Origin: Ancylonema sp.
Lineage: Eukaryota
Length of the DNA stretch: 64,000 nucleotides
NCBI GenBank assembly: GCA_050230475.1
Contig: JBFLGF010000118.1
Location: forward strand, 1 to 64,000
Direction: 5' to 3'
Shown: piece after piece, positions 6,815 to 54,491 of the stretch
Numbering within the stretch: the first letter of the stretch is position 1
How the letters are laid out: every line of letters begins with the position of its first letter
Notes under the pieces: generated by a model
The model's database searches: none
The model's input: the letters and a program-made list of their open reading frames with translations, nothing else
Told to the model about the DNA's origin: nothing
Position numbers and translations under genes: made by a program

Positions 6815-9126
6815 TTGGACTATTAAACTGTTGCAATGTTCAAAGACTTGAATACTACTATGACACGGTATACATGATAACCCTCAAACAATTATGAGAA
6901 GGGCAGGCCGGGTCAAGTTCAACATATCATTTTTTGTGTGATGTGGGTCTTTCCATAATGTGTGTCATGAGACAATAAATATACTTCAGATGTTTGGGAA
7001 ATTTTATATTGGGTGCGCGGGTGGGCCGTATGGTGGTTTATTAGCTAAATTTTAAAACATTTTTGAAAACCGAGGTCATTATGTATGGCCACAACGGTAC
7101 TGTCTGCTAACCATTATCATGCATCGTATCGCTCCTGAATTCATGCAGGATGTTGCATACACAAAAATGTTAGGCAAATTGACCTACTCGAAGATTTTAA
7201 ACATACCATGCCCCTAACACAAATCCAAGCATATTACAAGCCCCACATCTCCCCATGTTGAAAGTGTCTATAGATAATCACACCGGATTGATCACACTAT
7301 TTTCCCACTTTTCATACTGTCTACATCTAGAACTTACCAATGCCTAGTTGCGTCAATTGCTCCACATTCCCTATATCAATATTGAAAGAAAATTACACCA
7401 CACTAGTTCCACTGTTACAAATGAATGTACAAGTTGAGTACTATCCTTCCAACTCCACAAAATCATCATGATGGACGGACGAATGTCCCCCTCCAACACG
7501 CTTAACATAACAAGTAACAATACACGAAACATGTCTTCATCGCTAAGTTCCAAAAATCCGATGTCCGAAACCTGACACATATATTGAAGTAAATCGACAA
7601 ATATTAGATCCCCCCTCCATGCAAACCTCCCCCCCCCCCCTCACCCCCCCCCTACTCCACCGAAGTCGTTTGTGTGTTTTTCACACACACGGACCCAAAG
7701 AAGGGTTCCTCCCACCCTCCCCCCCACCTTTCTTCTGCGTTCACCAATGATGTCCACAATTGCCGCCAAATGGGTTGTCCGCATCATACTTGAACCTACA
7801 CCAACTAGGTGAATATTATTTCTTATCCATTAAAAAACAAAGGGTTCGGCGTACGTCTGTAACACTGCATGAGGGCCTCTCAAACCATCCCTGTGCTGCT
7901 TCACCCCGCATGAAAACTGGTCCATCCGGATTCTGTGAAGCTCCACTCGTAACAATCTGTCTCCCCCCTCCTCTCCTCCCCTCCGTGCGTCCTTTCCCCA
8001 ACCTCTGGCACCCTCCACCCTCATCCCTGGAAGGTAAGCACCACCTGCTTCCCCTTCCCAACCTCCCCCGCATTCACTCCCAATTGCCACCCGCACAGTG
8101 CAGGGGCGGCACAGATGGATCTGGTCACTGCTGCTGGCGCCGAACTCGATTCTGAACGATTCTGACGCCTGCCCTCCGGGTCAAGGCACCAGTCTGGGCC
8201 TCCTTTCGGTCCACGGTCTGTGATGAGGATAGGTTAGCGGTAGCAGTGAGCTTGGAGCGCTTGGGCTCATTGCCCTCACTATTTCTTGGCAGTGGCCTTT
8301 TTGTGGCGGGGGGAGGACGGTTTTGCAGGTGGCACAGAGTGCGGCGGGGCTGAGGAGAAAACGGATGGGGATGGCGGAGGGGGGAAAGAGATGAGAAAGG
8401 GGAGGGAAGGAGAAGCAGAAGGAGAGGGAGAGAAGTTTGTTCTATTTCTATGGAAGGAGAAGAGAGAGTTTTATCGGTTGTACTTTTTGGTGTAGAACGG
8501 CTAGTGAGTACCACTGAGGTCAAGGTTGACTTCTTTGTAGGACAGATGGTTAAGTATTATTGGAGTATTTGCGGGTTTAAAAACAGCAAGTAACAATGTA
8601 AGTGAAAACAAAATGGTTTTAAGTCTGGATGTATCATAACGAAATTATGGAGAAAAACTGAGCAGTTCGTCAATCTGATGCCCCACAGAGTCAGGGCACC
8701 TTCTCAGAAGCAGGAAGGAAAATATGTTCAGTTGTAGCAGGGGTGGCAATGCTACCCACCCTGCTTCCTGTCAACTTCTATGACACACCTCCCAGATATG
8801 TACCCAGCAAACATTCTTGACCGATCAAGGAAGAAATAATGGTGAACAAGTAAAACCAGCTATGAACTGCTACAACCCAAATACAGAATAAACAACTTCT
8901 GAGATACCACACGAATCCGGAATGAGTGATCATGCCGTGGTTCCCAGAAGCACGAGTAGGGGTACAAAGAGACGAAAGGTCATGAAATATGGCTCCACTA
9001 CACCTGCCTAAATCAAAGACGCAGACAGTGGACGTGGGGAGCAGACAGACATGTGACCCGTACACAAAAGGACCTCAAACCAGTGCCCTTGAACACCTGC
9101 ATTCTACTGATTGCAACATGGATGCT

Positions 9127-10953
9127 TCATTCCAACCCGCCCATGCCCCTTCTGACGCCAGCTTCTGAGGCACTGGCGCTGCTGGCCAGGCCCCATCCCT
9201 GGCAATTCCACGTCAAGCCATGGCAGAGCCAAGAGCAGAGTGCAGCCACAAAAGGGGGCCTCCCACACAGGAAGTTACAACAGGATGCAGCTTTTCTACT
9301 GATGCGGCTGTCAAAGACTAGGCTACCTTGACCAAAACCCGAGTCGCATAACAAAGGAGGTTGTGTCCATCACCACCTTTTCCATGTCTACTCGATGTCT
9401 TACCATTTTCAAAACATTTATGTGCTGTCACTTAGGCTTCTCACCTGATCAGATTTGCACATGTTTGAGATTTTGTTCGAAGAATACTCGTCCAACCTCC
9501 AGTCTGTGACCTTCTCTTCCGTTCCTTCTGTGTAAAACCTGTATGTGGTGACCACAGCCTCTTGCTGCACGTATTTTTCCTGGGAGTCAACGACAACGGA
9601 GGGGTGGCCAATGGCTCTCCAAGAACCACCCGCTGCAAAGCGGACAGGGAGTGCGCCCATGGCGGAATGGAAGGAATGGATTCGTTCGACCGACTTCGGT
9701 GCGGAGGTGACAAAAAAGAAGTTGTCCGAAAGTGGCATCGGCATGTTGCCAGAAGAAACTGGCATGTCTGCACGATTGGCGACTCAAATAGCAGCCATCA
9801 GCCATCAGCGTATCAGCTTTGCTACAGAAGAGGTTTAAGGCGAATGAAACAGGTCGAGGGGGTTTAAAACCTTTCGACCTTGTGTTGACATGGTTTTCTG
9901 TTCTTCCAGGACGCTATTCCTAAACCCCAGTAAGCATTTTCTAATTAGAGCCAGAAGAACACTGTCGCCAACATTGCAACATTTCCAGTTTGATGCTTGT
10001 TAACATGTTTTTCCGGCACAAAGGCACAGTGTACCATGCCTGACTTCACAGCTATTGAAGCCCAGAAGAATTATGATGTGTTTCAAACGTATCCAGACTG
10101 TGCAGTAATTTCGCTCCTACCGCGCCAAATCTGGAGTGCTTACAAACAGGGAATAAAAGTCATGGTGTATGTTTATGGAACACAAATGGTAAAACAAGTT
10201 GTTGCTTCGGATAACAGGCTGCACCCCACCACTGAACAAACAACAATTCGGACAGAAGGGCTTGCATAACAGTCTGCAGGTGAACTGTCGAGTGATGCTT
10301 AGGTTGCATAATGTAAGTCCACATAAACAAATATTTACTTCTGATTTCCAGTGTTGCCTCCATACAAACGACTCAGACACCACCAATTTCCGTTGAATAA
10401 CAAGAATAAGTCACTCCATTTGTTCATTCGTTTCTTCTGTTCTCGTTTTAGTTTTTTTTTTGTCTCGAACACTGGCTTTTAAAAATCACTGGCCGGCTGT
10501 CCTTCCACCTGTCGAGCAGCACTCTGAAGCCCGCACGGTGCGCATAATAAAACGATAGTTAACACACCTGACAGCTGCACCGGATGATAGAGAAAAATGT
10601 CGTCGACATGGCAGACTGGGGCAGCGATGTTGGGGCAACCCTGAAGCACTTTGGGCAGCAGATGGTATGCAAGCTCGCGGGGTAATGGCTGAAATCGGAA
10701 CCCCGGGGGTAGACACGAGGCTGACGATCCAAGACTGCAACGGCATACTGCCAAACTGCAGAAACACAAGAACAACATTAGACATAAATCAAATTATAGA
10801 CGTCGGGATTTCACTGGGACTCAGAACCAGAAAGGTAATGCTAATGCGGAAACCACATTATGTAACAAAAAATGAACAGCGCAACGAAAAAAAGAGCGGT
10901 CGTGCAATTAAAACAACTCACCATGTCAGAGGACACGTCGTATGAAACTCCAT
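9127..10953 (-). CDS. NAC-domain protein with an N-terminus copied from the neighbouring PHD gene; exons 10953-10922, 10755-10568, 9767-9445, tentative last exon 9198-9127
   Basis: LPPGFRFQP..EL..HLLPKV and DIFLYHPVQL (NAC subdomains A/B); NFFFVT, GGSWRAIG, TYRFY..G....TDWRLDEYS (C/D). A phase-1 intron follows subdomain B and a phase-0 intron follows D, as in typical plant NAC genes. Frame is open across the junctions; the 3' end is uncertain. Confidence 0.75.
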
Positions 10954-11228
10954 GCGGCCTTACGAGACTCGCTTGTTGGACGACCTTAAGATAGCGAGGG
11001 AAAGCGGACTTACAAAACTATTAGGATATAAAGCCATTATTCAGCAACCTTGAAGCGCCTAATTGACGACGAATTTCCTTGATCTGGAAATAATTGAGGG
11101 CATTTGAAACACCAGAGGTGTTACTTGGAACCTCAGCTCCACGGAATGTCAGTCCATCGCTGAAATTCCCCCTGGATTTTCTCCCCGGAAGGACCTGCCA
11201 CCTGCTTCCTAGATCTGGGGATCGGCAA
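10716..11228 (-). repeat. 513-bp inverted duplicate of 14193-14705
   Basis: Base-by-base reverse-complement match (roughly 90% by eye) covering leader, ATG exon, intron 1 and the first 40 nt of exon 2. Confidence 0.95.
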
Positions 11229-11410
11229 TAGGGATGGGATGCAACCCCAAACCCCTTCGGGTTGCGTAATGTTGTTTTTTTCGCAACCCCACGCAACCCC
11301 ACCCAACCCCACGTAACCCCAAGTAGCAACACGCAACCCCAAAAAGCAAAACGCAACCCCGAAAAGCAGCACGCAACACCAAAAAACCAAAAAAAAAAGG
11401 GTTTTCACCC
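11229..11410 (+). mobile_element. Single hAT-like terminus with gcaacccc subterminal repeats
   Basis: Begins TAGGGATG (Ac/Ds-like TIR start), followed by multiple (c)gcaacccc motifs; partner end not found. Confidence 0.55.
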
Positions 11411-11944
11411 CCAAATGATGCAATGCGAGTTTGGAAACAAATTTATAATACATGTAGTGCGAGTTGAGCGTTCTTATTAGTAACACACTGCACATGAGAA
11501 AGATACAATCATTGGAAGGTAGTTCGATAACCTCACTGTAAACATAACTTGTATTACTTTTGCATGTCGATTTTTTATGCCTTTGAAGTCTATTTTCGGC
11601 TTTGATTGAATAATTAGTTTTTTTTACTTGAAAGTGTCATCATCCATAACGAGCGTTTGTATAATTTCCCATTATCTTTATTCAAACCTTTTGAATCGTT
11701 CAACTCGTGTTACTCCGTATACGTGTTGCTCCGCAACAACAATTCCCATTTCTTCACTATTTTGAGAGATTGAATAGCAGTCGGTCGTTCGTTACATATA
11801 ACCTTGTATTGTAAAGTTAACGTACTGATTCAAAATGTTATCATTTCATGGGAGTGTCACACCATTGCAACACTGGAATATAACGACAAAAAATAAGCAA
11901 TACTTGGGGCCATTGTGTGAGTTATGTTTTTAGGTGGTGTGAGA

Positions 11945-12887
11945 CATAGTTGCACGAACCGAATTTTTTATTTTTTTTTGGAACCGGTTCCGAGATGGAA
12001 CCGTTTCGGAACCGTGTCGGAACCGGACGAACCGGGTGAGTTTAAGGGTTTTACCCCTTCCCGTGGTATAACATTTTCACCTTCCCAAAAAACATACGCG
12101 GGGAAATTTATACCGTTGTACATGTTCATGTTGGTGACTCCACGTCCCTTTCGGACGCTAAAATTGTTGAATATTTCATCGGGGAAATATGGCGTGGCCA
12201 TTGCAAGTTTTAATTTGCTTTCTTTCGCGCCATGGTAGGACGTGGTGCAATTTCATTGGCCGAAAACACCACTAGACCTTCCACTTAGGCACACACATCT
12301 CGCTTTGGAGAAGCAAGAGATGTGGAAGGTAGAGGAGAATAGTAAAAATGTAAAATTAGTGTTAGGGCTTTGGGAGCACGATTTGAGAGAGAAAATACAT
12401 GGAAGGTTGAAGAAAATTTCAGATGCCATTAGATTACGGGTAAAAATATATTCTCGCAACATTTTCACATGAAAGTATAACACGGAAATGGGAATGAGTA
12501 AGATATGCAACGGAGATGAGCATAGTAATTCATGAAAAAGGTATAGCCATTTCATTTTACTACTTGTACATGAATAGAAACACAATTTGCGAAGAAACGA
12601 GCAAAACATACAAATGCACCAAAAAACATCAGGTTGTATTCATGCAGAAAACCATTTTGAGTTTTTTTACAATGGACATCATTTGTTTGATATTTTTGTT
12701 GGATAGAGCATGACGAGCTACACAAAATAAAAATGTTTCTCAATATTTCCCGTGCCATGTAACCCTTCAAACTGACATCTAAGTAAAAAAACCCTAAATC
12801 ATCCAGTTCCGAACCACGGCCACTTTTTTCGGAACCGGTTCCATCTAAGATCCGGTTCGGAAACGGTTCGGAGTTCGTGCAACTATG
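11945..12887. mobile_element. hAT MITE, complete
   Basis: Perfect 15-bp TIR catagttgcacgaac/gttcgtgcaactatg, perfect 8-bp TSD GTGTGAGA, gaaccg subterminal repeats. Confidence 0.93.
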
Positions 12888-13099
12888 GTGTGAGAGATTG
12901 CACGTAGATGTTTAGCAACGAACATTACAGGTATTGGATTCGGACTGACACATTTAACAAATTTATTGTAATACATACCAAAATTGTCATAAATAAAAGT
13001 GCCGCAGTCAGAACTCGAAACGTAAACGATGACTAGTCTGGAATCATAAATGTTCTACCACCCTATGGATACTCATGTATAACAAGGTTCTACTATCAA

Positions 13100-13666
13100 C
13101 TATCCCAGATTGTAGGCAAGGAGGTCAGGAATGCTAATGGACGGCATCTTCAAGTCGCGAAAGAGGGACTCAGGAGTGACTTTCGTTGAGCGAGTCGGTA
13201 CATCCTCATCTTCATCACACTCTTCACTCCAACCCCGGGCTTTGTACAAAGCCCCGGGCATTGTTAGCTTTTTTGTTTGTTTTGCCGCCGCCACTAGGAC
13301 GCTGTACGAAGTGTACCCCCCACTTGACCAAAACGTGTACAATCTGGCTGCAGACCTTTTCTCCCACAAAAAATACCGTTGGGGAACTAGATCTACGTGA
13401 CCAGAGCCTGAATCAGAGCTCTCTGGAGCTCTACCTCCGCTACTTTCGTACTCTATCATCATGCTTCGTAACGATACAAGTTTCTTGTGATCGTCATCAT
13501 CACGCACCGAGTTGGCAATTGTCGTTCGATGCACAAGGTCGTCGGCCGCCGGGGGAGAGAAATAACTTTCGGAGCTATGCACATCTTCAGAAGTCAACCT
13601 CGGAGTGACGAATGACACAGAAAGGCAGTCATGTCGGGAGGGTTCATACATAGAAGGAAGAACCAT
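13100..13666 (-). CDS. Intronless ORF of about 188 aa, unknown function
   Basis: Open frame with non-repetitive protein-like composition, divergent from the PHD gene; no motif recognised. Confidence 0.3.
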   Translation of the reverse strand: MVLPSMYEPSRHDCLSVSFVTPRLTSEDVHSSESYFSPPAADDLVHRTTIANSVRDDDDHKKLVSLRSMMIEYESSGGRAPESSDSGSGHVDLVPQRYFLWEKRSAARLYTFWSSGGYTSYSVLVAAAKQTKKLTMPGALYKARGWSEECDEDEDVPTRSTKVTPESLFRDLKMPSISIPDLLAYNLG

Positions 13667-14468
13667 CACCAAGGAGATTAAAGATATGACTCATGCCCCA
13701 ATTGCCGCGCTTGACCAAACCGCCATTCTAAGACCTCCATGTGATTTAGATTGATTCCTCCACACCATTCCCACCTCCGCCACATTGGGCCTAGAATCCC
13801 TGTCAACGAGCCTACGTACTAGCAATAATTATTAGAAGGAGCTCAAATCCATGGTCATAGAATCCATTAGAATCCATGGTCATTAGAATTGGTCAGAGGT
13901 GTGAAGACGAGCGAATAACCCGTTATTATGGTAATATGTGGAGAATAATCGCTTCAGGCCCACACATAATAAACGATGGTTGAAAAAAAAAACCGAGACT
14001 AACGAACGGAGAGAAACGCGGATAAAAGCTGGCGTGCAGAAGCCGTGGAAAGTCCACTGGTACGGCCGCTGGCGCATTTTCGCCCGGAGCGAGCGTCCTC
14101 GCCCGGACCGGACAGCCTACAACTGCGTAGACTTCCTACCCGCCCCGCCGCCCCAAATCTTGGACCGTGCCTGCGCTCATGCACTCAGGCGCTTGCCGAT
14201 CCCCCGAACTAGGAAGCAGATGGCCGGTCCTTCCGGGGGAGAAAATTCAGGGGAAATTTCAGCTATGGACTGACATTCCGTGGAGCTAAGGTTCCAAGTA
14301 ACACCTCTGGTGTTTCAAGAGGCTTCAATTATTTCCAAATTCAGGAAATTCGGCGTCAATTAGGCGCTTCAAGGTTGCTGAATAACGGCTTTATATCCTA
14401 ATAGTTTTGTAAGTCCGCTTTCCGGCGCTATCTTAAGTTCGTCCAACAAGCGAGTCTCGTAAAGCCTC

Positions 14469-17400
14469 ATGGAGTTTCATACGGCGTGTCCTCTGACATG
14501 GTGAGTTGTTCTAATTGCACGACCGTTCTTTTTTTCTTCGCGCTGTTCATTTTTTGTTACATAATGTGGTTTCCGCATTAACATTGACTTTTCAGTTCTG
14601 AGTCCTAGTGAAATCCCGACGTCTATATATTTTTTATGTCTAATGTTGTTCTTGTGTCTCTGCAGTTTGGCAGTATGCCGTTGCAGTCTTGGATCGTCAG
14701 CCTCGCCTCTGTTTCTTTCAGCAAAGCCGGCTGCCACCAAAGTCAGCTTCTGGGAGACTCCTTCTGCGCACCTTCGCTTTCTCACCGACTTCTGCTATAA
14801 TTCAAAAGCGCTTCTCTACGACTCCCCGACTTTGGAGGTTTTGGTACCCAAGCTGCAGGTGGAGCAACGTCGGATCAAACGTCCGGTGGCAGGTAACACT
14901 TTATTTCCTGATGGGGAAAAGGACCGAGCTCGAAGATTTGGGATGTGCACATATGAGGTGGAAGTTGGGACATTGGATTGACATATGGATTGAATCAGGG
15001 TCGTTCATTTCAGAGCAACCTCTTGGGACACTAGACATCGAGCTGAATGTTCGCTAGCTTTTCAGCTCTCTCTCTCTCTCGCACTCCCTCTCTCTCTCTC
15101 TCGCTCTCCCTCTCCGTCTCTCCCTCTCTCCCTCTCCCTCTCCCTCGCCCTCTCCCTCTCCCTGTCCCTCTCCCTCGCCCTCGCCCTCTCCCTCTCCTCG
15201 CCTTCTCCCTCTCCCTCTCCCTCTCCCTCTCCATCTCCCTCTTCCTCTTCCTCTCCCTCTCCCTCTCCCTCTCCCTCTCCCTCTCCCTCTCCCTCTCCCA
15301 CTCCCTCTCCCTCTCCTTTAATCACACATGGAGTCCCCAGGAAAAGGAATCATCTCACATCCCTAATGTCTAACCTGCTTCTGTCCGTTCAGCTACCAAG
15401 CCGCCGCCCGCTCCTCTCCGCCCTCCACCTGCTGCAGACGCGCCCCTTGTACCCCCGCCAGCAACCACTGCAAAGAGGACGCCACCTGGCAAGAAGCCAG
15501 CCTCTCGCCTAAAGCTGACACCTGTCCTCAAGGAGCCAGAAGTAGAGAAGGCCCTGGACCCTGCCCCCAAAGCCCCAAAAGCCCCAAAACCCCCGAAGGC
15601 CCTCAAAGCCCCCAAACTCATCAAGGCCCCCACCAATGAGGTTGCTGTCAAGGACAAGGATGTGCATCAGGAGGTGCCAGCTGGCGAAAAACAGGCTACA
15701 AAAGCGCTAGGTGGATTGCTACACGCTACAGAAGCGCCAGGTGGGCCAGCGAAGGCAGATGTGGTCAAGGTCCGTGAGGAGGTGCCAGCTGGCACTGGGG
15801 AGTCGGAGAAGCCAACCATCAAAATAAAGCTGAAAAAGTTGGCAGGGGCAGCCAAGGGGGGTGGGAAGGGGAGTGGCGGGGGGAGGGGGGTGGAGCAGAA
15901 TGAGGATTCTCTGCCTAAAGTTGCCAAAGTGGCAAAAGTGGCACAAGAGGCAAAGGTAGACCATGTGGCAAAAGTCGAGAAGGTGGTGGTGGCAGAACCC
16001 ACGAAAGCAGTGGTGAGATTGTGGTGCCGTGAGAGAGTACAAACGAGTGATCCAGGGTTGTTTGTAATGGGGACCCTAACGGTACACAACAATATGAGAG
16101 GAATTGTAGGATTGATCCACTCTACTTTAGTCTACCCCCCCAAGGTCACCTGGTAGACAGTATGAGAGGAACAATGGAAAGGGAGAATGAGGACAGAACG
16201 GATCAGATGTTGATTTGGGGGACGATACGATCGTAACCTTGTCCTTGAAAGGAATGTGGTTGCTGGAGGAGGGGGTGGTCGTTTCTTTCCATTGGGAGTG
16301 CGTATGCCCACACTTCTGACCGCGCTTATTTTTTTCTTTCCAGGAGGTTTCCTGTGGCCTGTGTGAGAGGGGGGAGGCAAAGGGAAGCGCGAACTCGCAT
16401 GGTCGCATGAAGAGCTGCCCCAAGTGCGAACGACGGTTCCATGCTTCCTGTTTTGCCACGTGGGCAGGGAACAGGGGTGAGGGAGGGAGGGAGGGGGGTG
16501 GATGGAAAGGGAGGAGGGGGTTGTAAGGGAGTTTTTGACGTTGGGGCTTGACGGAGCACGAGAAAGAACCTGGAGATGGAAGGCAAAGAGACCGAAATGG
16601 AGTATGAGCTCTGTTTTTTTATAGACTCGAGTGGCATGATCGTGAGGTGAACGAGGGGTGGGGTTGGGGTTTGCTGTCCTGTTCAGATGCCTTTGAGATG
16701 GACCACTGGGTGTGCGCCACCTGTCGCTCTTGCCAGAAGTGTGGCGATCCTGGATCGGACTCCTCCTCCTTGTTCTGCAAGCGATGCGACGTGATGATGC
16801 ACTGCCACTGCACACAGCCGCCACTCAAAGTAAGGAAGGAGGAGGGACAAGGAGGGAGGAGGGGGAGGTGGGGATGGATGAATGAAAGTGCCTGGGGGTG
16901 GGGTTGGGGTTGGGGTTGGTGAAGGTTCCGCCGAAGGGCCCCTTTCTGTGCAGCAGCCACACGCAGTGTCAGAGCTGTCTCAGTCTAGTGCCGGGGAGTG
17001 GGACGTCATCCAGGTAGCTATAACTTTTTATTTTTTATTTTTTATTTTTTATAATAAACATTATATAACAAAAATAACCCCTTAGACTGCTGTATCGTTA
17101 CAATCCCCTGTGTCCCTGTATCGAGGTCCTCAGGTGGTTCCTTTCCTACTCCCTCTGCGACGCCTGCGGCCGTCTGTTTGTGAAGCACAACTTCTGCCCC
17201 ATCTGCCTCAAGGTGTACCGCGACACGGAGCCCTCCCCCATGGTCTGCTGCGACTCATGCCAGAAGTGGGTGCACACCGCCTGCGATGACATCAGCGATG
17301 ACATGTACGAGCAGTTTCAGGTGGAGCACACCAGGGCCTACATGTGCGCAGCCTGCAGGGGGACGGCCTACAAGGTAGGAACGGGACACGTGGGAAGTGC

Positions 17401-19503
17401 ACTAGGAAGCCTGGCTCTCGACCTGGACCCGAATCTGAACCCTGGTCTGTGGTCTGTGGTCTGTGGTCTGTGGTGGGGCAGGTGAAGGATTTGACGGACG
17501 CGACGCGTGAGCTTTGGAAGAGGAGAGAGGAGAGGGAGGGGCGGCCACCCCTGAGGCCGGTACTGGAAGAAGAGCAGGAGGAGGAGGAGGGGGGGGAGGT
17601 GGGGAAGAGGTTGGAAGGGAAGGAGGAGGTTGAGGGGGGGGAGGGGAGGAAGGAGAAGACGAAAAAGAAGAAGATGAAGAAGAGGGGTCAGGTAGGGGAA
17701 GGTATGAGAGCAGGGCTGGAAGCTTCTGGGAAGACGCAGGAGGCTGCGGTGGGGGGGGAAGGGGCGAAAGGGGTGAAGAGAAAGAAGGGGGAGGTGGAGG
17801 TGGAGGAGGAGGGGGATGGGGAGGGGGGGGCGCTGGAGTTACAGAGGAAGGGACCTGGAAGGCCCAAAAAGGAAAGGAGGGAGAAAGGGGCGGAGGGGGA
17901 GAAGGAAGAAATGGTGAAGGGGAAGAGAGAGGATGGGGAGGGGGCGGTTGCAGTTCCGACTGAGGAAGGGGAAGAGAGAGTGGGAGGAGGGGGGGGTGGG
18001 GGTGGGGTTGGGATGAAGATGAAGATAAAGTCGTTGCTGCCCCTCGGGGTCGTTCAGAAGAAGAGGAGTGACAAGGGAGCGAGGAGGGGAGAGAAGAGAA
18101 GGGAGGACAGGGACGCAGAAGGGGAGGGGGTGGGGACAGAACAGGGGGGGGGGGGTGGCGGGGAGGTTCGTGTGGGAATCTTCGGGGGGAAAGGGAAGAG
18201 GAGCGTGAAGACGAAGGGGTTGAAAAGGAAGAGGGGAACAGAGGAAGGAGCAGCAAAGGGTGGGGGGGGGGAGGAGCCCAAGGGGGAAGGTGGGGGAAGT
18301 GGTCCAGCTGCAGGGGATGGGGAGGGGGAGGGTGGTGTGGGGGTGGAGGGAGACATGGAGGACAGTCCCGCGGACTTGAAGTACCCGGGAGCAAAGAGGG
18401 GGAGGAAGAAGAAGAGGGGGAGGGGGAGAACGGTGTGGGAGGGGGGGGCAGACATTGTTGGGCAAGTGGAGGGGGCGGTGGGGGGGGCAGAGGAGCAGGC
18501 GGAGGGTGGGGAGGCGGAGAGGGGGAGCCAGCCTGAGGGCCTCACAAAGGAAGTTGGAGGAGATGCGAGGAGTGGGGGAGAGGGAGATGGGGGGGAGGGA
18601 AGACGGGTGAGGAAGCCGAACATCCTTTTGAAAGACATGGACACCTCTGTGGGAAGAAGAGCGAAGCAGATATCGCGCGAGGTGATGGCGCTGTTCCAGG
18701 ATGTGAAGGACGGGGCACAGGCACAGGCAGAGGCAGGGGACGGGGCGGGGGAGGGGGGGTCACAGGGGGGATCCAATCCTTCTCGAGGAGAAGGGGAGAG
18801 GGGAGGCACCAGACAGGGGAGGAGGTTGGGTGGGGTGGGAGGGGGGGGGGGAGATGAGGTGGCCGAGGGGAGGGGGGTGGCAGTTACAGGGGCACGCTCC
18901 AAACAAAAGAAGGGGGGGAAGGAGGAGGAGGCGGTGGAAGGGGGGGGAGGGCAGGGGAGTCCGGCGAAGGACGCGTTGAGCCGTCTGGGACGGAAAGCGT
19001 TGAAGAAAAGGGTGGAAGTGTATTGGGAGGACGATGACAAGTGGTGAGAAGCACCGCCTCACTCAAAGCACTGTCGTGGATCTTGGGGGACGTGGAAAAG
19101 AGGGACGAGGGCCTTCAGTAGCCGGTCATAAACAATTTCCCAAAGTGGGCCATGGTTGGTCGATGACGATGGGAGAGATGGGACAACTTGTGATGAGGGT
19201 GGGAGGGTTGCGATGTATGATGGACATGCGTCTCTTCTCACAGTAGATGGCACCTATGGAGAGAGGAGAGATCGGAGTTGAGAGACACGTTAGATATGGC
19301 AAAGTAACGGTGGACATCTGATGGCTATGACTTGACTAATTTGGTAGGTGTGGTTCCTTCCTTTTGAATGCAGGTATACGGGCACGGTGGTCGATGTGGT
19401 ACCTTCGAAAAGTCGATATGTCGTTTTGTATGATGATGGGGAGCAAGAAGTGCTCAAATTTGGGCAAGAGAAAGTCAGGCTTCTACTCAGGGGAAGGCTC
19501 TGA
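14469..19503 (+). CDS. PHD-finger protein with C-terminal Tudor-like domain (Arabidopsis At3g08020-like); exons 14469-14500, 14666-14892, 15393-16012, 16344-16476, 16687-16829, 16925-17013, 17134-17374, 17482-19043, 19374-19503
   Basis: N-terminus MEFHTACPLTCLAVCRCSLG; tandem PHD fingers (FCKRCDVMMHCHCTQPP; CDACGRLFVKHNFCPICLKVYRD..MVCCDSCQKWVH); terminal KRVEVYWEDDDKWYTGTV...VLYDDGE; all splice phases compatible. Confidence 0.92.
15065..15317. repeat. (CT)n/(CTCTCC)n polypyrimidine repeat in intron 2 of the PHD gene
   Basis: Direct reading. Confidence 0.95.
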
Positions 19504-19738: not shown

Positions 19739-20717
19739 CCGTAGTGGCCATACATAATGACCAAAAACGAATTAATTTGGGCAAGAAACCACCACTTGAC
19801 CCAACCCGCGCACCCAATATACAATTTTCCAAAATCCTGAAGACCATAGTTGCACCAATACGTGGCTGCCGTTTGCATACGGCCGTTTGCATACGGCCCA
19901 TACATGATCCTTGCCGTATGTAGTTTTCCCTACGGCTAGTTTTTTATATATAATTATAATTCTTGTGCTGAAAATTTTCGGTACACATTTTCCAATCCGA
20001 AAATTATGCTGAGTCAATTTTTTTAAAATTTTAATGGTTAATTATATCCATCCATTATATTTGAAGTTATTTTAACAAATCAATATATCTTCAATGTTCT
20101 GAGAAATGATGATAAATGAAATTTCTTATCTCAAACTCCGCCTCCTTTTCATTTCATATTCCATCTACTTTATTCCATTTTTATTATCCAGTGCTCTCTG
20201 CTTGGTGTGAGAGGAAATAAATCAATTTGGTTCAACATTAAATACGAATATTAAGTAAGTACCTATACTCGCCTTCAAGTATATATCCAAACCCCATACG
20301 AATAGCATGGTAGCATAGGTATATGAAAATGCCGATCTAAGAGACACAGTTCGCCGCTGACTCGTTGACATACGCCTACGCCTATACTTTTAATATAGGC
20401 ACAAAGCTTAGGTGTGCCACGTACGGTTACGGGTTGATCAGTTTTTGAACATCCATATCCGTGAAATTAAATTTTCAATATGAAAATTTTGCCCGAACGT
20501 ATGTAGTCGAATGGAAGCGCCACGTATGGCTGGCAAAAGTATGGCATACGGCGTATGTAGTTTTTTTGCCGTATGGGTGCAACTATGCTAAAGCTGATTA
20601 TTATTCGGTGACCCACATTATAGAATGACCTACTTTATTTGAAATTTGAGTTCTTTAATTTGACCCGACCCACCCTTTTCATAATTATTTGAGGGTCATT
20701 ATGTGTGGCCAGTACGG
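19739..20717. mobile_element. Tc1/mariner-type MITE (CCGTA ends) carrying a nested hAT-like element
   Basis: TIR ccgtagtggccatacataatgacc / ggtcattatgtgtggccagtacgg flanked by TA; partial inverted copy at ~7005-7098. Confidence 0.8.
19845..20587. mobile_element. hAT-like MITE (CATAGTTGCAC TIR), nested
   Basis: TIR catagttgcacc/ggtgcaactatg; catacg/cgtatg subterminal repeats; degenerate TSD ctgaagac/ctaaagct. Confidence 0.75.
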
Positions 20718-22139
20718 TAATTAAACTGCAAGCGTGCCATACCCATTGACGTTTGCTTTCAACTCACTCTTCCCCTCTCACACAATATTATACTACAAGC
20801 ATAACATATTTCACGCAATGATTGTGCTGTTGTGAACTTTTTTTCAAAGTCTTCTCTGTTGAGCAATGTATTTGCGATGCACACTTCACTTTTCTTTCAA
20901 ACGAATGATGTTCGATAAAATTCCGATCTGTAGTAGATAAGTAAGTTATGGTCTAAAGGTCATGAACATTCAACATGAAGTGTTTTCTATTAATGAACGT
21001 GATTTGCTCACACGGGCGTTGATGCGTGCTCCTATTGGTTGGGGCGTGGAGCACACCGGGTTGCGTTGCGCACGTTGGTCATCAATATGAACTCATGTCG
21101 TGTGGAAAGGCTACAACTCCCGTCCCCCCCTCCCAAAGTACCCGCGATGCACCTAGGAACATCTTTGCGGCGCGAATAACAGCTCCAACGAGATTTATTT
21201 AGACAAAGATTCCTCGCCCGTTTCGCTTAGGTTGGTGAAACGATTCCGGTTTGCCCCATCCGGTGTCCCCTCTTTTGTACAACTCAAAATGAATACGTGT
21301 ATAAGTTACAAATTAGTCGCACCGTATAGAATCGAGGGGAAATGTTCAACCATCTATCGCACGATGGCACCGATTGATTTGTAAGCATATTATTCATGGC
21401 GTTTCTGAGTTTGAACCGGATGTCCGGTTCCCAGCCCTTATTGAACCTTTCTCACACACACTTTAAATGAGCTCACTTGTTTGAATGACATCACTATCAG
21501 GCACATCCAACATACAAACGAGACGATAAGGGACTGGATGTTAGAGCCTTAATGACATCAAACAACTGGTGCAACGTTTGTGGGGCCATCCACACGTCCA
21601 AGTGATTGAATCGAACAAAAAACACTCTGCCGAACCTAGAAACATAATATACTTTGAGACTTTATGAGAGCCGTGGGTGGCACCGATCAAGCGCATGTCC
21701 AAGGCAACTACCCCAGAGGTCTCAACTCCGCAATGTGAAAAAGATACGAGGCGTTGGGTTGGTTAGGTGAGCAACCATAAAGCATCACTCCATCGCCTCT
21801 TTGCGTGACAACTACGAGGGTACCTTGTGTCATGTGGCTACAACATAAGTCTACAACATACAGATATACATGCTCACGGACATCATGTATTCGTGATACA
21901 TGTTCAAACGTGAGGTGTACATCACCTTGAATGTCATAACGCATTTATGCAGTTTGCACCTTGTCTCTTGAAGGAACCAAATGCATTTGTCACTGGTCAT
22001 TTTTAGGAGTTTCAAATAGGCACTACAGCTGGATCCCGGACGACCTTGTTCGGTGGATTGGTCCCGCATTTGTCGGTACACATGTCGTCCCGGACATGTT
22101 CGGAAAATTATCAGTCGACTGTATATTCTCGACTGTATA

Positions 22140-22570
22140 TTCTCTTTCAAATCGAGCTCTCAAAGCTCCAACACGAATTTTATAATTACACTCCTCTCCT
22201 CAACCTTCCACATCCCTTTCTCCTCCGACGCCGGATGAGTGTGTTAGAGTGGAAGGTCGGGTGGTGTTTTCGGCCAATGAAATTGCACCACGTCGTGCCA
22301 TGACGCGAAAGAAAGCAAATTAAACCTTGCAATGGCCTCGCCATATTTTCCCGATGAAATGTATAACAGTTTCAGCGTTTGAAAGTGACGTGGAGTCACC
22401 GACATGAACATGTGCAACAATATATTGTCCCCGCGTACGTTTTTGGGGAGGGAAAATATGTTATACCGCGGAAGGAGGAAACCCCTAAAAATCATCCGGT
22501 TCGCCCGGTTCCGAAACAGTTCCATCTCGGATCCGGTTCCCAAAAAAAAAAAACGGTTCGTGCAACTGTG
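22140..22570 (-). mobile_element. Truncated inverted copy of the 11945-12887 hAT MITE
   Basis: Reverse-complement similarity to ~11945-12390, ending ggttcgtgcaactgtg. Confidence 0.8.
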
Positions 22571-30348: not shown

Positions 30349-30918
30349 TGGTAGTGTTTAGGGGCTGTGAACTTTTGTTGTTACATTGATTTGTCCGATC
30401 TGTTCGCTGTAGTTTGAGTTTTGTCTTCATTCAGCAAATGCCGGCCGAACTTGTAAGTGATGATTGTGTCGACAAGTTCTGGCGAGTCAGCATAAGTGTC
30501 GATAAGTTTTCGTCGATGTGGCATAATGCTTAGCTGTGATTGGTGTCGACTCAGATAGTTTCGATATGTTGACTTAGACGTTTTGTCGATTACACACAAC
30601 TGTACTAAGAGTGGACTTGCACGCAAGATCCTGTAATCAGACTTTCTATCTCAAGCTTGCACTTTTGTTGTGTTAATGCTTGTAATGTCGTGATCGATTG
30701 ACTCATAAGTTGATTGAGAGTTGAACATTATTCTTGCAAAGATGGCATAAGAAAGTTCTCACAGTGTTATAAAAGCAAGTTACTACATCCTGCATGGAAA
30801 GAAAGTTCCTTTTCAAGCATGGCGATCTAAGGCCTCAATGATCCTTGACGATGCTGACTGTCTTGAGATTTGTAAGGGCACAAAGGTGGCACCAGAAGAA
30901 GTGGTTGCTAGGTATGAT
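30349..30918 (+). mobile_element. Decayed Copia 5' fragment: LTR (30349-30763), eroded PBS and gag start
   Basis: LTR similar to 122-526; translation ..FQAWRSKASMILDDADCLEICKGT..EVVARYD matches the Gag N-terminus near 53667. Confidence 0.88.
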
Positions 30919-44041: not shown

Positions 44042-46722
44042 CGTGGATTTTTTTGCGAGTGAATGTGGGGGAGAGAAGGGAGAGTTGATGGTAACGAAAG
44101 TATGATAGTTGGTTGGAGGATGTGACTTATGTCGCAGTGTCGTTTGTGATGGCACGTATTCAACCGGATTTCGAAGTCGATGATCTATCTAGTTCGAAAG
44201 ATGGGTGTCACGAGAAGCAATAAGTAGTTGATGATTGTCAGCCAAAATTACGAGTCGGAAGAAACCCCACATCTATATGGGGAGGGTTGTACTTTCAAAG
44301 AGGAAGTAAAGACCGATTTTGTTTGTCGCGGGGAGGGTAGACTACAACCACTGGCTTATTTCGCCTTCCATGTAGGTTACATCATGCAAGTGTAGCTAAA
44401 TTTGCATGGCCCATACTCATGTTTCGTTATCTCTGGGTTTGTGAACTTGATTCGAGGGTCATGCAACGAAATGTTGTATTTGCCATGACTTCCCTTGGAG
44501 GCATATCAGACAATTATGCAATCGCATCACACGAGGGTTGTTGTGGTCGTACAACTCCTTTGGTAAGATGACATGGGGACTCCGGGATTTTATTTTTGTT
44601 GTGTGTGGGGTTCCGCTACACAAACAGAAATGTCGTTACGCTATCATGGGTCGCTTGTCGTATATGTAAAAATAACGCAAAATGCCATGTACCCAAACAC
44701 AATTTTGGCAGTGTGCAAGTATCACGCGTTCGTGGTGTCTGAATATGGTTTTATTTCGTGCACAAAGTCACTTGCTTGCATTGCAACAACAATGCCTCCA
44801 TGTATTGAGAGGATCGGTAATGGATGCTCGAATGAGGCGAATCCATGGTTGGTCCATGGTCACCCAATCCTCTTATTCCAATTGGAACTTTATTGGGCTC
44901 GATCTGCATCAAAATTGGATCGGAATGTTTTTTAAACGAAAATGGGCCAACAAATATTGTCTTCAATGTGATCAATTTGAGTACTTAAATATACCGTAAT
45001 GTGCGCTCTCAGGTCATCGAGTTTTTTAATAAAAGAATCCGTTCATCAATAAGTTTAAGCGTTGATTGCGGGCATCTGAAAAGAATGTGAATATTTGAAG
45101 GATGTATTGAGGGTATTCGAAGCTTATACCCTGTGATCCGCAACCAAATTATTCGACCCTGAATCTACCGCATACGGGTATTACGGGATCCCAAGTCGTA
45201 CGCCATACCGTAGAAACTCAACAAAATAATTATCTTCAATCTAATATCTTGGCTAATACAACAAAACATGCTAACATAACCACTTTACTTAGGTTTTTAT
45301 GAGAAAATAGCATCTTGTGTAAAATAGCATCTTGTCTAAAATTTGATGTATTTTCCTTCCCGTCAATATGAATGAAGAGAAGTCGACCATATTTTCCTCT
45401 GCGGTTCTTTTGGTGGGTGTGCGTTCGTGGTTGACGTTTCTTTTTGTGTACCGTGATGAGGGAGGCAAGTACAACGTACATCCGCGGGGTAGCCCCGGCG
45501 GTGTACTATTTGAAGAGGGAAAGACGCTCCTCAAACCAAATTTACAAAAATGATTTCATGTTTTTCACCTGCACCCGTTTCAGCGCTAGCCTCCCCTCTC
45601 CATCCTCAGCGATCAACATACTGCAACTGACGCACCGCTTCGAAGATCGGCCCTTGTTGCAGCCAAGACAGTGGAGTAGAGACCCGTTCGAGACGTAGAC
45701 CGGAGGGTGTTCTATGATCCAGTCCTCTCATCTCCTATCCCCATTCCTGCAGATGTGTCGGAAGAAGACCAAGAGCGTTTGGGAGAGCCACTAGCGTGAC
45801 AACCACTTCTAGTCCCTGTAGAGCCAGTCCGGATACCAGTGTGAGCACCTCTGAGAGGTCCTGAGCGAGGCCCCGACTACGGTCGGTCAGGTACAACTCT
45901 CAAGATGCCTCTAAGCTTTCAAAAGAGGGAGTTTAACGATTTGGAACCAGGTACGACTTTAGAGAACGAACCCTCTGCAGATGTGTTACCAATTGAACCG
46001 AGCATGCATGCATTAAGTAGAGTTGCAGGTCGGGCAAAGGCAACAAAAGTAGTAGCAAGTCAAGTCAAGAGATCTGTAAAATCGGTAGGGAAGTGTTAGG
46101 CACGTCGAGTGTAGCGAGTCCCCTAGCTGGAGACTCTCAGACACACGAGGTGGCTAACCTTGCCTGTGTCAACACTTAGACATATTTGGCACGAAGCAGC
46201 CATCCATCCTGGGGTCAGGGTTTGGCTCTTCTCCCAAGTATATTATTTGAGGGAAAAGAAGGGACAAAACACAAAACAGGAGAGACAACTGCCAGAAGCA
46301 GTTTGAGCTCGGGGAGAACAGTAAAGCGGTCCCTCTGGGTCCAAGGCCAATTTCCGTTTTTATCTGAAAAAGGGGCGTGGGCAGTGTCTAACCAGCCATG
46401 CGTCAGGATGACCCAGGACCACTTGGCACAAAGCACTAATCCATCTTGGGACCACGGCTTGGCTCTTCTCCCACGCAAGGTACTTGAGGGAGAAAAAGGT
46501 GAGACAGTTATTCAACTGCAGCACAAACTGAGCTCAAGTAGTACAGGACGGTTGGGACCTTGGGCCTCGGAGCAGCTTGTATATATGCCAGGCAAGAAAA
46601 CGACATTAGTAGCACCAAGATTTAGCGGGGATGAAGTAGATGAAGATGCTATGTTTGTATAAGATATTCAGGCTCCTAGACAAGAGTGGTACCAACAGTT
46701 TGTCCAGGCTCCAGGGTCCAAC

Positions 46723-47181
46723 TTGTCATACTTGAGTAGTGCTCTGGCCCATAACTTGTTGCTCGATCCCAGCTTTGCAATTCCAGGTCCCCCTCCTCTG
46801 CGCGACATCGTCATGTGGAAGCACACCACCATTCCCAATTTAGCTGGCGTTTTCACCATCGAAGGCCATGCACCACAAGGGGAGTGCGTCTTGGAATCAG
46901 GTGCGAGCTTCGTCATGATAGGTAAGAGGGTGGCAGATTCATTGGGTCTGCATGCAAAGGATTTGGATGAAGGGATCACTTATACGGTTGCCTCGAGTGC
47001 TTCTCCTAAGTGTAGGGGGGTGACCAAAAAGAAACTTGCTATCTGCCTACTCCCAGGCACTCCATATCAGGTCACAACACATCTGCATGTACTGGTAGAC
47101 AATGCTACCTCGTATGATATATTGGTGGGTGCTCATCTCGTCAATCGTGAAATTGTCCTGATCAACTACCGAGACTCTTAG
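46723..47181 (+). pseudogene. Retroviral-type aspartic protease
   Basis: CVLESGASFVMI (D[ST]GA motif with D->E), flap-like TYTVAS, and YDILVG. Confidence 0.75.
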
Positions 47182-47991
47182 TGGAAGGTAGAACTAAAGT
47201 GGGCAACTACGGGAAAACGCAAAGTGCGTTTGACCATTGACCATTGACCATTGACCTTTATGTGACTCCAGCGCAGCTGAGAGAGAAGAAGAATGCAAGA
47301 TTGCAAGGCTATGTGGGAGGACCGTCCGACTACTTCCCCAACGCGACCCCAGGGCAAGTGAAAGCGTTGCCGCACCCGGCATACCAGTGGCACGCACGTG
47401 AGGAGGAAGAAGAACGCGCCCGATAAGAGGAGTGGGCTTGCAATGCCCATGATATCCTTACCACCTGGCTGCTTGCATCTCCTGCTTTGCATCTGCACAA
47501 TATGCGGTTAGCAGAGTTAAAGGAACATTTCGAGCTCATCAGGATGCATGTGGTCAATTTACGCAACTAGACAATGCAGAATAGTATAGGCATCCGAGAG
47601 GGCCCAAAGTCTTTCATTTGGACTCACAAATAGCGTGTCTTGCGTACAACCCTTCCTTTTTACGAACAGTTGCAGAGGGACATCGCCATCAAAGAAGCCG
47701 AGGCTGAGGACGAACGCCGGGCTCGTGGCATCATCCTTCCTGCAACACCACCACCAGTGATCCACCTGTCAGAGTTTTAGCAGGAAATGACACGCCTGGA
47801 CCAACAATCTGCGATACGTCGCACCTTTCAACGCACTCAGGCCCAGAGGGAGGTGATCGTGAACCTGGACCGCACCCGTCGCAGAGCCCTTGCACAGCCC
47901 CTACTGCTCCTCTCCCACCCACATTGGACAAGAGTGTGATCATGTGGAGCCCATCGACACAACTGTCCGTCGCCAGCCAGCTCACCAGCAA

Positions 47992-48729
47992 GGCGTTCAC
48001 ATCTTCGAAGTTTGTGGCGGTGTGGGCTGCCCCAAGTTGATGGAGGCCATGGGAGCAGGTGTTGCGGTCAGACAGTACACCTATGTGGATATTGGCCGCA
48101 ACGAGCATGTCGTGGTTCGCGCTTTCCTCGCCAAGGTTCACCTGCAGTATCCTCACCTCTTGCCCCAATCAGCGATTCAAGGGTTTGACTCTCGCCTTGA
48201 TCAAAATGTATATCGCATCTCTGCTACTGACATGGTCAACCTCACTGCCCGCCATGGTTTTATTGACATGTTTGGATGTGGCTTTCCTTGCCAACCATAC
48301 AACAATGCTGGTAGGGGTAGAGGTAGAAATGACCCGCGACATGGTGTTTTCTTTGAAATGGTCCGTCTGCTCAAGTGAAGTCAACAGGAGCAGGATGGTC
48401 GTCTAGTTCTGTACCTCTTAGAAAATGTGCATATCCGTCAAGATACGCCAGAGGAGGTTAAGGATGGTGATGAACACGTCATGGCTTTACTGAGGCAACC
48501 TAGCATCCGGCTAGATGCATGTTCGGTAGGGGGTCTCAGTCACCGCTCGCGTAGGTACTGGACTAACATGTTGTCTCCTCGGGAGCTCAAGCGTTTTGTT
48601 CCCCCTAACCACCTCTTGGATCCTCTGTCCTCAGCCCTTGAGCTCCACCATGAACTAGCTCCCTACGAATCGACAGACCAGCCCCCTCATCGCCGTGTCA
48701 ACATTCGAGGTCGCCCCCGTCGGGTGCTG
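47992..48729 (+). pseudogene. C5 cytosine DNA methyltransferase domain (DNMT3-like), motifs I-VIII
   Basis: I: IFEVCGGVG; II: YVDI; IV: GFPCQ; V: GRGRGRNDPRHGVFFEMVRLL; VI: LLENV; VIII: LDACSVGGLSHRSRRYWTN. One in-frame TGA at 48376-48378. Confidence 0.9.
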
Positions 48730-50490
48730 TGTTAGACTCGTATGGAATGACGAGTCTAGCTTTTATAAGCAATCTCACACCACAAATAAATGCATATGGA
48801 AATAGGAAGTGCAAGTAAAGATAAGGATAATACATGAATTGATCACGATACTCAATGAGCACTACTTAAGGGTTTAAATACTAGTCTGAAGCTAGGGTCG
48901 GAACCGAACTCGTTGTAAACGAAAATTGAACATACCTCGGTATAAGAACAAGCTGGAAGTTAAGACCTAATAAAGGACTGACTGATGATGAAGTGTAATA
49001 ATCAAAGAAGGGCTTAACAACGTGTAGGAATATTCGGATAGCCATGCCTTATGCTTGCTAGTCCAGTTGTGACCGTTTACTCTAACCGGGCGCCATATTC
49101 CTAGATGTGCTTGTATGCGGTGCCGGGCACGATTGTGTCCGGTCACCTGATCTGTTGTCACGCTTGATGTCGACAGTTAGAGTCGTTATTAGCGGTTGGC
49201 ATGCTTGACGTGTCTTGATTGGTTCGATCTAGTCATGTCAGAGTGTCCGGCATGTGCCGTTGACACATAGATGAGTTGTCACTCAAGGATAGGCCGACGG
49301 TCAATTGTACCGACCGTCGGCAGACAACGATCTGTAAAGCGCATCGGGTATTACCATCCCCGATGCGATCACAATGTAATTAATTCGTTCCACACACGCA
49401 ACTCTTGTCTCGTTGATCATCAGTGATAGAGATCCTTTGCGTACGGTTCGTTTTGTCGCCCACCAAAAATCTCCTGCACGTAATCACTCAAAAGCTTAGA
49501 GGTTATGGGCCCACGTGCGGTCTAGTTTAGACGCCGTGTTGGTTAAGAACTACAAGCTCCCGCGATTCGCTGCGAAGATCTCTTGAACGGTAAATTGTGT
49601 CTGTAAGGGCAAATTTAGCCGTGGTTGTTAAGTACTGCTAGACGTAATTTCGACATTGCGTTGCACGAAATCGAGTTGAGAGCTGCATTGCAGGAATTGC
49701 ACTGAGAGCTAAAGCTGCGTGAGAATTCTCATAAAATCCTACACAATTGTTGCTATAGATGTCGGATAAATCTCAAATTCCGAAGTTTACTGGAGCATAT
49801 TGTACAGGATGGGCCTTCAAGGTCAAGTATGGGTTAGCAGACAAAAAGCTGCATCGTGTGGTCATGGATTGGGACAGCCTGCTGCGGCGGCGTCGTCCAT
49901 ATGTTATTTTGCCATTGACCCCAGACAATGAGCTGCAGTTTACTACTAGGGGGGTCGACGTTGATGTCGAGAGAAGGACCAGGGAGCAGCGGATTTCCTA
50001 GCAGCTGCCACAGCTCGAGAAATGGGACGAGGATAATCTGGCTGCAATGGCGTACATCCAGAAGCATTTGGGTCCCTCGGAGCTGACACACGTCACGGAC
50101 TGCACGACAGTTGCCGGGATGTAGGAGGCACTGAAGACTTTTTATATGGTGCACGGAGCGATCGAGATCGCCAACACCGAGGCGCTGCTGAGCGCTATTA
50201 TTCAGGCGGAGGCTGAAGACCTCAACGTCTACGTGAAGCGGCTGCAGCAGATCCATCAGGACCTGAAGAACCCGGGTGCGCCGGTGACGCCAATGAAGTA
50301 GGCTATTAATTTGCTGAACTCCCTCAACACTCACTACAGCCCCATGGTGTCGACTCTCATGCCATGGTCGGAAATCATCACCGCATCTTTTCACGATTCC
50401 GCACATTGTGAACGCGCTGCTGCGCGACGACGTTCGCAAGGAGCTGAATGAGCGGAAGAGGGGGGCGCTGCCAGGAGGTCACCACGCAAC
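48730..50490 (+). mobile_element. Ty1/Copia 5' part: putative LTR 48730-49500, half-tRNA PBS, decayed gag (49759-~50490)
   Basis: Starts TGTTAG; PBS at 49501; gag IPKFTGAYCTGWAFKVK...AMAYIQKHLG...LNVYVKRLQQIHQDL...LLNSLNTHYSPMV with in-frame stops. Confidence 0.8.
49501..49514 (+). promoter_or_regulatory. Primer-binding site complementary to the anticodon arm of tRNA-iMet
   Basis: GGTTATGGGCCCAC is the reverse complement of GUGGGCCCAUAACC of plant initiator tRNA. Confidence 0.85.
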
Positions 50491-53667: not shown

Positions 53668-54491
53668 CGATGCAAGAATAAAGCACAATTCTTCTCTCAG
53701 ACAAATCGACAGATCACGTCATTACAAACGTTGACACAACAAAAGTGCAAGTTTGAAGTAGAAAGTATTGATTCTGATTAAGGAATTCAGCATGCAAGCT
53801 CAGACCTAGTACAGTCGATTGTTGTCTGGTCAACGAATCTGCCGGTATCGAAACTACATCGTCAATTGCCAATCATATCTAAGCATTCTGCCACAACAAC
53901 AAGTTCTTATCGACACTTGTGCCAGATGGCCAAGTAATCATCAAAACAAGGACGTCGGCCTGCAGCCGGCCTGCAGCCGGCCTGCCGCCTGCATTTGCTG
54001 CTGAATAACGACAAAACTAAAGCTAAATTCCCGGTATTGCTAACGATATAACGAAAAACTAACATTTTCCTTGTTGTGTTCTTCACATTATGTCCCATCA
54101 CATATATTTACACCTGTTGGTGTGCGTCTTTTTCTGTTTTTATTTTTTATGCTGGCTCTGGATTGTTCAGAATCCGGGGAACAGATGACTCGACCAAATC
54201 GGTCCTGGACCAAACCGAGACCACACAGTCAACCGTGGAAACCCGTGGAAACCTGTGGAAGAAATATTTGTTTTCCCTGCCCACGTTTTAACCAAAAAAC
54301 TTTCGGATTACTTTTGTAAAATTGTTGTTGTTTGTTGTAATACTTAGTGTGGCTAACCGAGTCCACATCGGGCCAGATTCGGATGGGCAGTAGACCAAAT
54401 AGTCCCGGGTCGGACCCCAAGAATAAAAGGAAGAAAAATAGTTTATTTGATGACAAATTGTTTGACGAGTATATTTTTTTTATTGTATATA

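Follow-up and report, generated by a model that had tools for sequence, protein, structure and literature searches.

A transposon-linked insertion in a NAC gene of Ancylonema sp. carries a copy of the start of the neighbouring PHD gene, joined to the NAC codons in frame

A predicted chimeric gene was studied in a 64,000-nucleotide stretch of DNA from Ancylonema sp. (GenBank assembly GCA_050230475.1, contig JBFLGF010000118.1, positions 1 to 64,000; hereafter the window), an organism that is a streptophyte without a close named relative. In this stretch, a transposon fragment and a copy of the 5' end of a PHD gene appear to have split the first exon of an adjacent NAC transcription factor gene and to have given that gene an in-frame start, with an origin in repair at the end of a hAT-type transposon and transcription from the captured leader. 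We give this reading as a whole a probability of about 0.58. The structure and limits of the insertion are seen directly and leave very little doubt; the route by a hAT end plus repair copying is probable; that the chimera is expressed and under selection is put slightly below even odds.

Evidence for a single insertion came from contigs of three public sequencing runs, X1, X2 and X3, aligned to positions 8800-14150 and 10600-11290. X1 and X2 represent one sample, probably the source of the window, and X3, with a depth below 3, is a sample of another study. X3 gives no coverage of the unique DNA in the NAC intron, which is uninformative; no contig of a fourth run, X4, aligned, and this has no bearing on expression. 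The insertion separates two neighbouring codons of NAC exon 1. It is 2,759 bp long, or 1,808 bp if a nested element and one of its 8-bp duplications are subtracted. A paralogue contig of 6,814 bp, with 88% identity over 13475-13747, presents the empty site: a single letter lies between its counterparts of 10714 and 13475. In X2, a loose end behind 10714 runs on into the native NAC N-terminus. In the window, that N-terminus stands beyond the insertion: translation of 13666-13475 gives a 64-amino-acid leader that aligns with P0001-P0003 (E 4e-12 to P0003), three of six NAC relatives taken from metagenome and sequencing-run proteins (P0001-P0004, P0007 and P0008), and the native leader and P0003 share the last nine residues before the NAC start. 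Given the empty site in the paralogue and the native leader at 13475-13666, 10716-13474 is therefore one insertion in NAC exon 1. The site shows no target duplication, and 0-1 bp of target was lost; a remnant 8-bp duplication of the form nTnnnnAn can be drawn there, the chance rate of such a fit is high, and it was not used. Before the insertion, the NAC and PHD genes stood head-to-head, with 802 bp between their start codons. From the native NAC ATG the frame now continues into the element, where it stays open for 124 codons (188 amino acids in all; 13100-13666, minus strand), and these 124 codons match no Pfam family. Weak phase-2 donors in 13100-13666 could in principle splice to 10755.

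The side of the insertion next to the NAC codons is an inverted 513-bp copy, at 10716-11228, of 14193-14705, with 92.4% identity over 515 columns. An initial annotation of the same DNA had reported this copy as a local inverted duplication. The copy and its position were confirmed, whereas a plain duplication does not describe what is present: the copy is the end of the 2,759-bp transposon-linked insertion, with the severed NAC start on the far side. Of the captured 513 bp, 275 belong to the leader, 32 to the ATG exon, 166 to intron 1 and 40 to exon 2, and the two copies differ at 32 substitutions plus gaps. If spliced as in the donor, the chimeric frame would open at the captured ATG (10953), cross a single Cys codon to reach LPPGFRF and continue across exon 3, with GT-AG splice sites intact at 10921/10756 and 10567/9768. 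The in-frame fusion proposed earlier is thus present as described, down to its two peptide pieces and the lone Cys codon that precedes LPPGFRF. The three exons would encode 189 amino acids if read to a stop at 9418-9420; with a donor at 9445 in use, they would hold 181 codons up to that point. Similarity to P0004 stops at the same point as that donor, between DQ and V, which makes a fourth chimeric exon likely. Three exons with intact splice sites had been annotated, and these stand; the annotated gene end at 9127 does not, except by way of the putative fourth exon (acceptor 9198). The coordinates of all features are collected in Table 1.

Table 1. Features of the chimeric gene, the insertion and the donor gene, in window coordinates
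Feature	Position	Strand	Description
Whole insertion	10716..13474	-	Paralogue joint 10714/13475
Captured PHD 5' copy	10716..11228	-	Leader, ATG exon, intron 1, 40 bp of exon 2
Chimeric exon 1, coding part (captured ATG exon)	10922..10953	-	Sequence-predicted
Captured intron 1	10756..10921	-	GT-AG intact
Chimeric exon 2	10568..10755	-	40 captured bases, then NAC subdomains A-B (10568-10715)
NAC exon 3 (subdomains C-D)	9445..9767	-	Donor 9445, or read-through to stop 9418-9420
3' part	9127..9444	-	Several candidate acceptors (9376, 9198, others); paralogue contig aligns 9289-9367
Severed native NAC N-terminus	13475..13666	-	64 codons from own ATG, frame still open
Element terminus	11229..11239	+	9/11 letters of Ac/Ds terminal inverted repeat; diverse flanks
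Subterminal repeats	11282..11380	+	Seven, 9 bp each; 7-bp-stem hairpin of same motif at 11241-11265
Host element	11229..13450	.	About 1.27 kb without nested element; second terminus not found
Nested non-autonomous element	11945..12887	.	Terminal inverted repeats; 8-bp duplications 11937-11944, 12888-12895
Stub	13451..13474	.	24 bp beyond family contigs; minus strand starts TC; 10-mer common to 10583-10592
Source region of copy in PHD gene	14193..14705	+	First 8 bp (14193-14200) fit nTnnnnAn
At3g08020-like PHD gene	14469..19047	+	Exons 14469-14500, 14666-14892, 15393 onward

The donor is identified by its N-terminus. Counts of PHD homologues rest on the best 120 of 443 matches, which are At3g08020-like proteins. 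Identities of 63-70% were found to named plant proteins and one eukaryote-transcriptome protein, two of them named like AT3G08020, and one further protein reaches 85%. PHD fingers lie near 16730-16830 and 17132-17374, with PF00628 above its cut-off twice; Atlas scores on PHD exon 2 were all below 0.9. An N-terminal His/Cys motif stands at the start of 87 of these 120 homologues and in none of the six NAC relatives, five of which have a leader of their own of 60-66 amino acids (the sixth is an exon-3 fragment). The PHD gene is therefore the donor, as had been proposed. Beside the source region at 14193 there is no element or footprint today. X1 also contains a second, diverged PHD paralogue, with loose ends at 10718 and 10764; several NAC paralogues and a second PHD paralogue in one sample may reflect a duplicated region or genome.

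The acceptor is, by colinear matches to subdomains A-D in its translation, a NAC (NAM, PF02365) transcription factor gene. Scanned apart, the two NAC exons match Pfam NAM at positions 1-45 (exon 2; 20.7 bits, E 6e-4) and 69-121 (exon 3; 22.6 bits, E 1.5e-4), both under the 27-bit cut-off, and the relatives P0001, P0003 and P0004 score alike. Atlas returned NAM at 0.91 for exon 3, with 186 features in common. The NAC part of exon 2 is 77-81% identical to P0001-P0003, and exon 3 is 53% identical to P0004, the gaps between them all being in frame. Basic residues are usual in NAC subdomain D and are absent from both the chimera and P0004. Searches with exon 3 gave no NAC match among solved structures, nothing by a word-based method and, with HMMER against 1.84 billion representatives, three matches of which one was a real relative; a metagenome-collection search with the NAC alignment gave 146 pattern matches, none of them confirmed. 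The NAC subfamily of the window (9445-10715) is strongly divergent, with relatives only among unnamed metagenome and sequencing-run proteins. Set against NAC factors in general, the gene is alike in having NAM on both exons, the LPPG start and close unnamed relatives; it is unlike them in its diverged subfamily, in exons that fall under the Pfam cut-off and in the foreign Cys/His N-terminus.

The remainder of the insertion is derived from a transposon. From 11229 to about 13450 the DNA is a high-copy repeat, with a summed contig depth (not equal to copy number) of about 2e4-8e4, compared with 103-141 in unique DNA. Position 11229 is a true element terminus, since unrelated DNA precedes it in at least 10 X1, at least 8 X2 and at least 2 X3 contigs, and it adjoins the captured copy exactly. 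The terminus matches the terminal inverted repeat (TIR) of Ac/Ds, as given in PMC3260210, at 9 of 11 letters; its first eight letters, with C or T in first place, occur six times on the two strands of the 64 kb. The subterminal repeats fall within 150 bp of the end. The pattern nTnnnnAn is the target pattern of Ac-family elements (PMC8961557). The flanking 8-mer in the window fits it, as do 7% of local 8-mers. The flank consensus of X1 and X2, an 8-bp GTT..AAC palindrome, also fits; a single X1 contig, an X2 subfamily and the X3 consensus fit at one position only. The base beside the terminus varies: the window has A, as do one X1 contig and the X2 subfamily, X3 has G, and the plurality is C. 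The Ac/Ds-like TIR, the subterminal repeats, the fit of the window flank to nTnnnnAn, the palindromic flank consensus and the variable adjoining base suggest that the 11229 end is of the hAT type, Ac family; the copy would then be a fragment, not an intact hAT element. A search of metagenome contigs with the element-end pattern gave 0 matches.

The far end of the repeat bears on how the insertion arose. Family contigs end near 13450, none lies on 13454-13474, and there is no loose end there among the best-supported ones listed. The 24-bp stub beyond them holds a 10-mer that is also found in DNA 123 bp from the break (2.3% under the null). Short filler taken from the vicinity is a sign of repair where a transposon has broken the DNA (PMC3014980; 10.1101/2020.08.10.245175). 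The nested element is absent from other copies of the host element, which have its empty site (joint 11936-12887). Elsewhere in the window, 22134-22570 is a partial inverted copy of the nested element (81%), and a different element, at 19846-20586, opens at either end with the same 11 bp of terminal repeat and has 8-bp flanks that differ at 3 of 8 positions.

These features suggest the following route. A hAT-type element end would have been joined by transposase to the PHD promoter at 14193, on the sister chromatid or homologue, and a break would have arisen in NAC exon 1, 718 bp from the PHD promoter. Repair synthesis would then have passed into the element and out again at its terminus, continued for 513 bp along the PHD gene and come back to the NAC exon, with the second element nesting before or after this event. 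With a sister chromatid or homologue as template, the inversion, the lone inward-facing terminus, the filler-like stub of 24 bp and the clean PHD promoter would all follow in one step. The predicted product is a divergent NAC protein of at least 181 amino acids, in which 24 PHD-derived residues would replace 64 native ones under the PHD leader, and the intact NAC paralogues would buffer the loss.

Information on the template came from two X3 contigs. An X3 PHD contig, with a loose end into PHD exon 2, sides with the captured copy at 4 substitutions and 2 indels, and with the neighbouring PHD gene at 2 adjacent sites. A second, unassigned X3 contig agrees, among 18 differing sites, with the captured copy at 11 and with the neighbour at 7, and it has 1 of its own (11 versus 1, P 0.006; 7 versus 1, P 0.07; some of the sites are clustered, and depth is below 3). 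These data hint that the copying template was another allele of the PHD region; if this is right, the 7.6% difference between the copies would overstate the age of the captured one. In a fuller version, which is doubtful, one accident in a deep-branching streptophyte both beheaded the NAC gene and rescued it with a start exon and leader copied from another allele of its head-to-head neighbour; the chimera would be expressed under PHD-gene control and selected, and every intermediate would still be legible. In the boldest form of this version, a reaction of the Helitron type would have moved a hAT end.

Several observations weigh against the hAT-plus-repair route. No second TIR was found nearby within 2 mismatches of the first 12 letters; no 8-bp target duplication surrounds the insertion, which has one terminus only and so no TIR pair; and no transposase was seen. 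A contig boundary in X1 implies that 13445-13474 also occurs in another sequence; X2 has no such boundary, and the sharing is unexplained if the stub is private filler. Some of the junctions can also be read as those of a Helitron, and read-through is an unlikely alternative. In it, a rolling-circle element with its start at 13474 would have run past its 3' terminus at 11229 (or have held a hAT end within itself) and taken 513 bp of PHD DNA with it. Helraiser read-through produced new 3' ends CTTG, CTAC or AATG before T, with capture in 11.7% of events, and HelibatN3 carries a promoter, a start codon and a splice donor (PMC4778049). Here, A stands before TC, T follows the end, there is no duplication and the insertion lies between A and T in NAC exon 1, the joints being free to shift by one letter. 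The outer end reads CTCG followed by T (CTAG is matched at 3 of 4 letters by 3.6% of local positions), and a -7.0 hairpin ending 19 nt before the 10716 end is in the top 5% of local 50-mers. The plurality C with the A before 11229 may likewise be read as CTAG followed by T, and the flank agreement values, at 0.49, favour neither a hAT element nor a Helitron. A further hairpin, 12 nt from the 11229 end (-8.2 kcal/mol), is made of the subterminal motif. Against a Helitron stand the Ac-like TIR, the subterminal repeats, the variable base at the terminus and the palindromic flank consensus. Moreover, the invariant CTRR end fails, as the window has CTA and then TT and at least 4 flank readings lack R at the last place, and the family contigs end near 13450, 24 bp short of the TC. 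A Helitron would in addition require a now-vanished element at 14192/14193, where the site is C then T, not A then T.

Two further explanations were weighed against a hAT end plus repair copying. An inverted duplication could have formed independently of any transposon, with a later element insertion trimming the copy by adjacent deletion. hAT elements give rise to deletions of adjoining DNA with one endpoint at the element's terminus, and such a deletion would also place the terminus at the edge of the copy. This order of events is nevertheless quite improbable: the far side of the element is without any PHD upstream sequence, and a second loss, of the other terminus, would be required, up to 24 bp from native NAC codons. 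Misassembly around the inverted repeat and the high-copy element, the other explanation, carries only a marginal probability. While no one contig spans the region, and the contig over the fusion has 60 + 30 letters, one below the bridging rule, the two copies differ at the substitutions and gaps given above, and both alleles of the duplicate are present at like depth (X1, 160/135 and 176/143). Contigs free of differences cross 11228/11229 (190 + 60 letters, X1) and 13474/13475 (55 + 676 letters, X2), and the fusion point is covered without difference at a depth of 158. Misassembly is thus unlikely, though X1 and X2 are not independent of the assembly.

The fate of the gene is less clear than its structure. 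It may be dead or silent, a redundant NAC copy that was knocked out, with the in-frame joint (1 in 3 by chance) and the open frame reflecting its youth; we place this possibility, too, a little short of an even chance. At least one intact NAC paralogue is present in the same sample, so that the loss would be buffered; the upstream neighbour is a high-copy repeat; and captured sequence most often ends as a pseudogene (PMC13317346). In neutral simulations, start, frame and splice sites survive in 5-42% of cases depending on rates; the upper value speaks for a dead copy, whereas at the observed indel rate survival is just 5-16%. Two other findings count against a dead copy: exon 3 differs from P0004 by in-frame gaps only, and the captured lineage has no coding change where 2.3 are expected (P 0.10), the single coding change lying on the neighbour's lineage with X3 as a guide. 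The initial annotation had proposed a comparison of coding with intron divergence. Coding differences were indeed lower (1/72, against 31/438 non-coding) without reaching significance (Fisher P 0.068), and constraint on the donor itself explains part of this. It also counts against a living chimera that the severed leader is open as well, with 38-81% survival expected. Together the tests, all post hoc and none significant alone, offer a weak hint of selection on the chimera.

Transcription from the captured leader would depend on how much of the promoter was copied. What we take to be a TATA-like word stands about 78 bp before the captured ATG. Two motifs that are presumably site-II-like lie outside the captured 275 bp, as does the GC-rich part of the intergenic region once shared by the NAC and PHD genes; for these two reasons, which tell against the proposed transcription, the core promoter may not have been captured.

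Three subsidiary ideas fared less well than the chimera itself. The captured N-terminus had been suggested to be a 24-residue metal-binding tag, which the data do not support: in the PHD family, a conserved N-terminal module extends to about residue 62, and 24 residues are a fragment of it. A low-confidence fold model of a PHD homologue (68 sequences) has a mean predicted local distance difference test score of 51.7, with residues 1-22 below 50. Coupling of the two genes by double-stranded RNA was likewise not supported, as both arms would, from their layout, be transcribed outwards into same-sense RNAs, and no known promoter reads through both. In Ac killer alleles, by comparison, the hairpin comes from a transcript through both arms (10.1101/2020.01.07.897926). 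Decay driven by methylation finds no support either: CpG transitions make up 2 of the 32 differences, and there is no depletion of CpG, though the elements show none either.

The window contains other elements apart from the insertion. At 46663-48735, an aspartyl-protease-like frame precedes a fragment of a C5 DNA methylase (Pfam E 2.5e-5 and 3e-7), and the pair is probably a decayed retroelement carrying a methyltransferase. Retroelements with a methyltransferase have reportedly been found in charophytes. At 51796-53718, on the minus strand, there is a Copia-type gag/pol frame of 640 amino acids, with inverted matches of 79-87% at 30490-30885.

There are parallels with several known systems. 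At maize P-oo, which arose by transposition of reversed Ac ends (PMC1592236), hAT ends joined two linked genes, regulatory parts with coding parts, in a chimeric transcription factor gene, as is proposed here. In that case, two paralogues were fused by rearrangement in laboratory stocks, whereas here the neighbours are unrelated, the source was copied, the donor stays and the severed start of the acceptor is still in place. The Ac/fAc Composite Insertions (10.1101/2020.08.10.245175) also combine a local copy of donor flank with an element at a nearby gene, and have filler from close by. Composite Insertions have element termini at both outer ends; in the window, the lone terminus is internal and faces the captured DNA, and the outer ends have neither terminus nor duplication. 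At P1-rw1077 / P1-rr (PMC3014980), a truncated Mu-like fragment from one TIR and nearby filler similarly reshaped a gene. That event altered an enhancer and the 3' untranslated region; the one described here supplied an in-frame start exon from a different gene. Helitron 3' transduction and promoter capture by HelibatN3 (PMC4778049) share the order of element, then captured promoter region, start codon and splice site, and a target between A and T without duplication. The differences from these are that the inner end here resembles a hAT TIR and not the invariant CTAG, that the DNA joint is within an exon, that there is a single copy and that the source is local. The insertion is neither an intact hAT element, a canonical Helitron nor a Composite Insertion. 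A literature search, with most subscription journals outside its reach, found no NAC-PHD chimera.

As a gene predicted from DNA, the locus makes a good case study and not a new principle. Transposon-made chimeric genes are known from maize laboratory alleles and from genome surveys, and natural cases rarely keep the parts from which they were formed. At this locus the severed start and the element end survive together with the filler-like stub and the donor, and intact paralogues exist as well; the kind of gene birth is known, and this natural example of it is well preserved. The locus is also a caution: behind a short local inverted duplication there may be a larger transposon insertion, of which the duplication is the end that shows.

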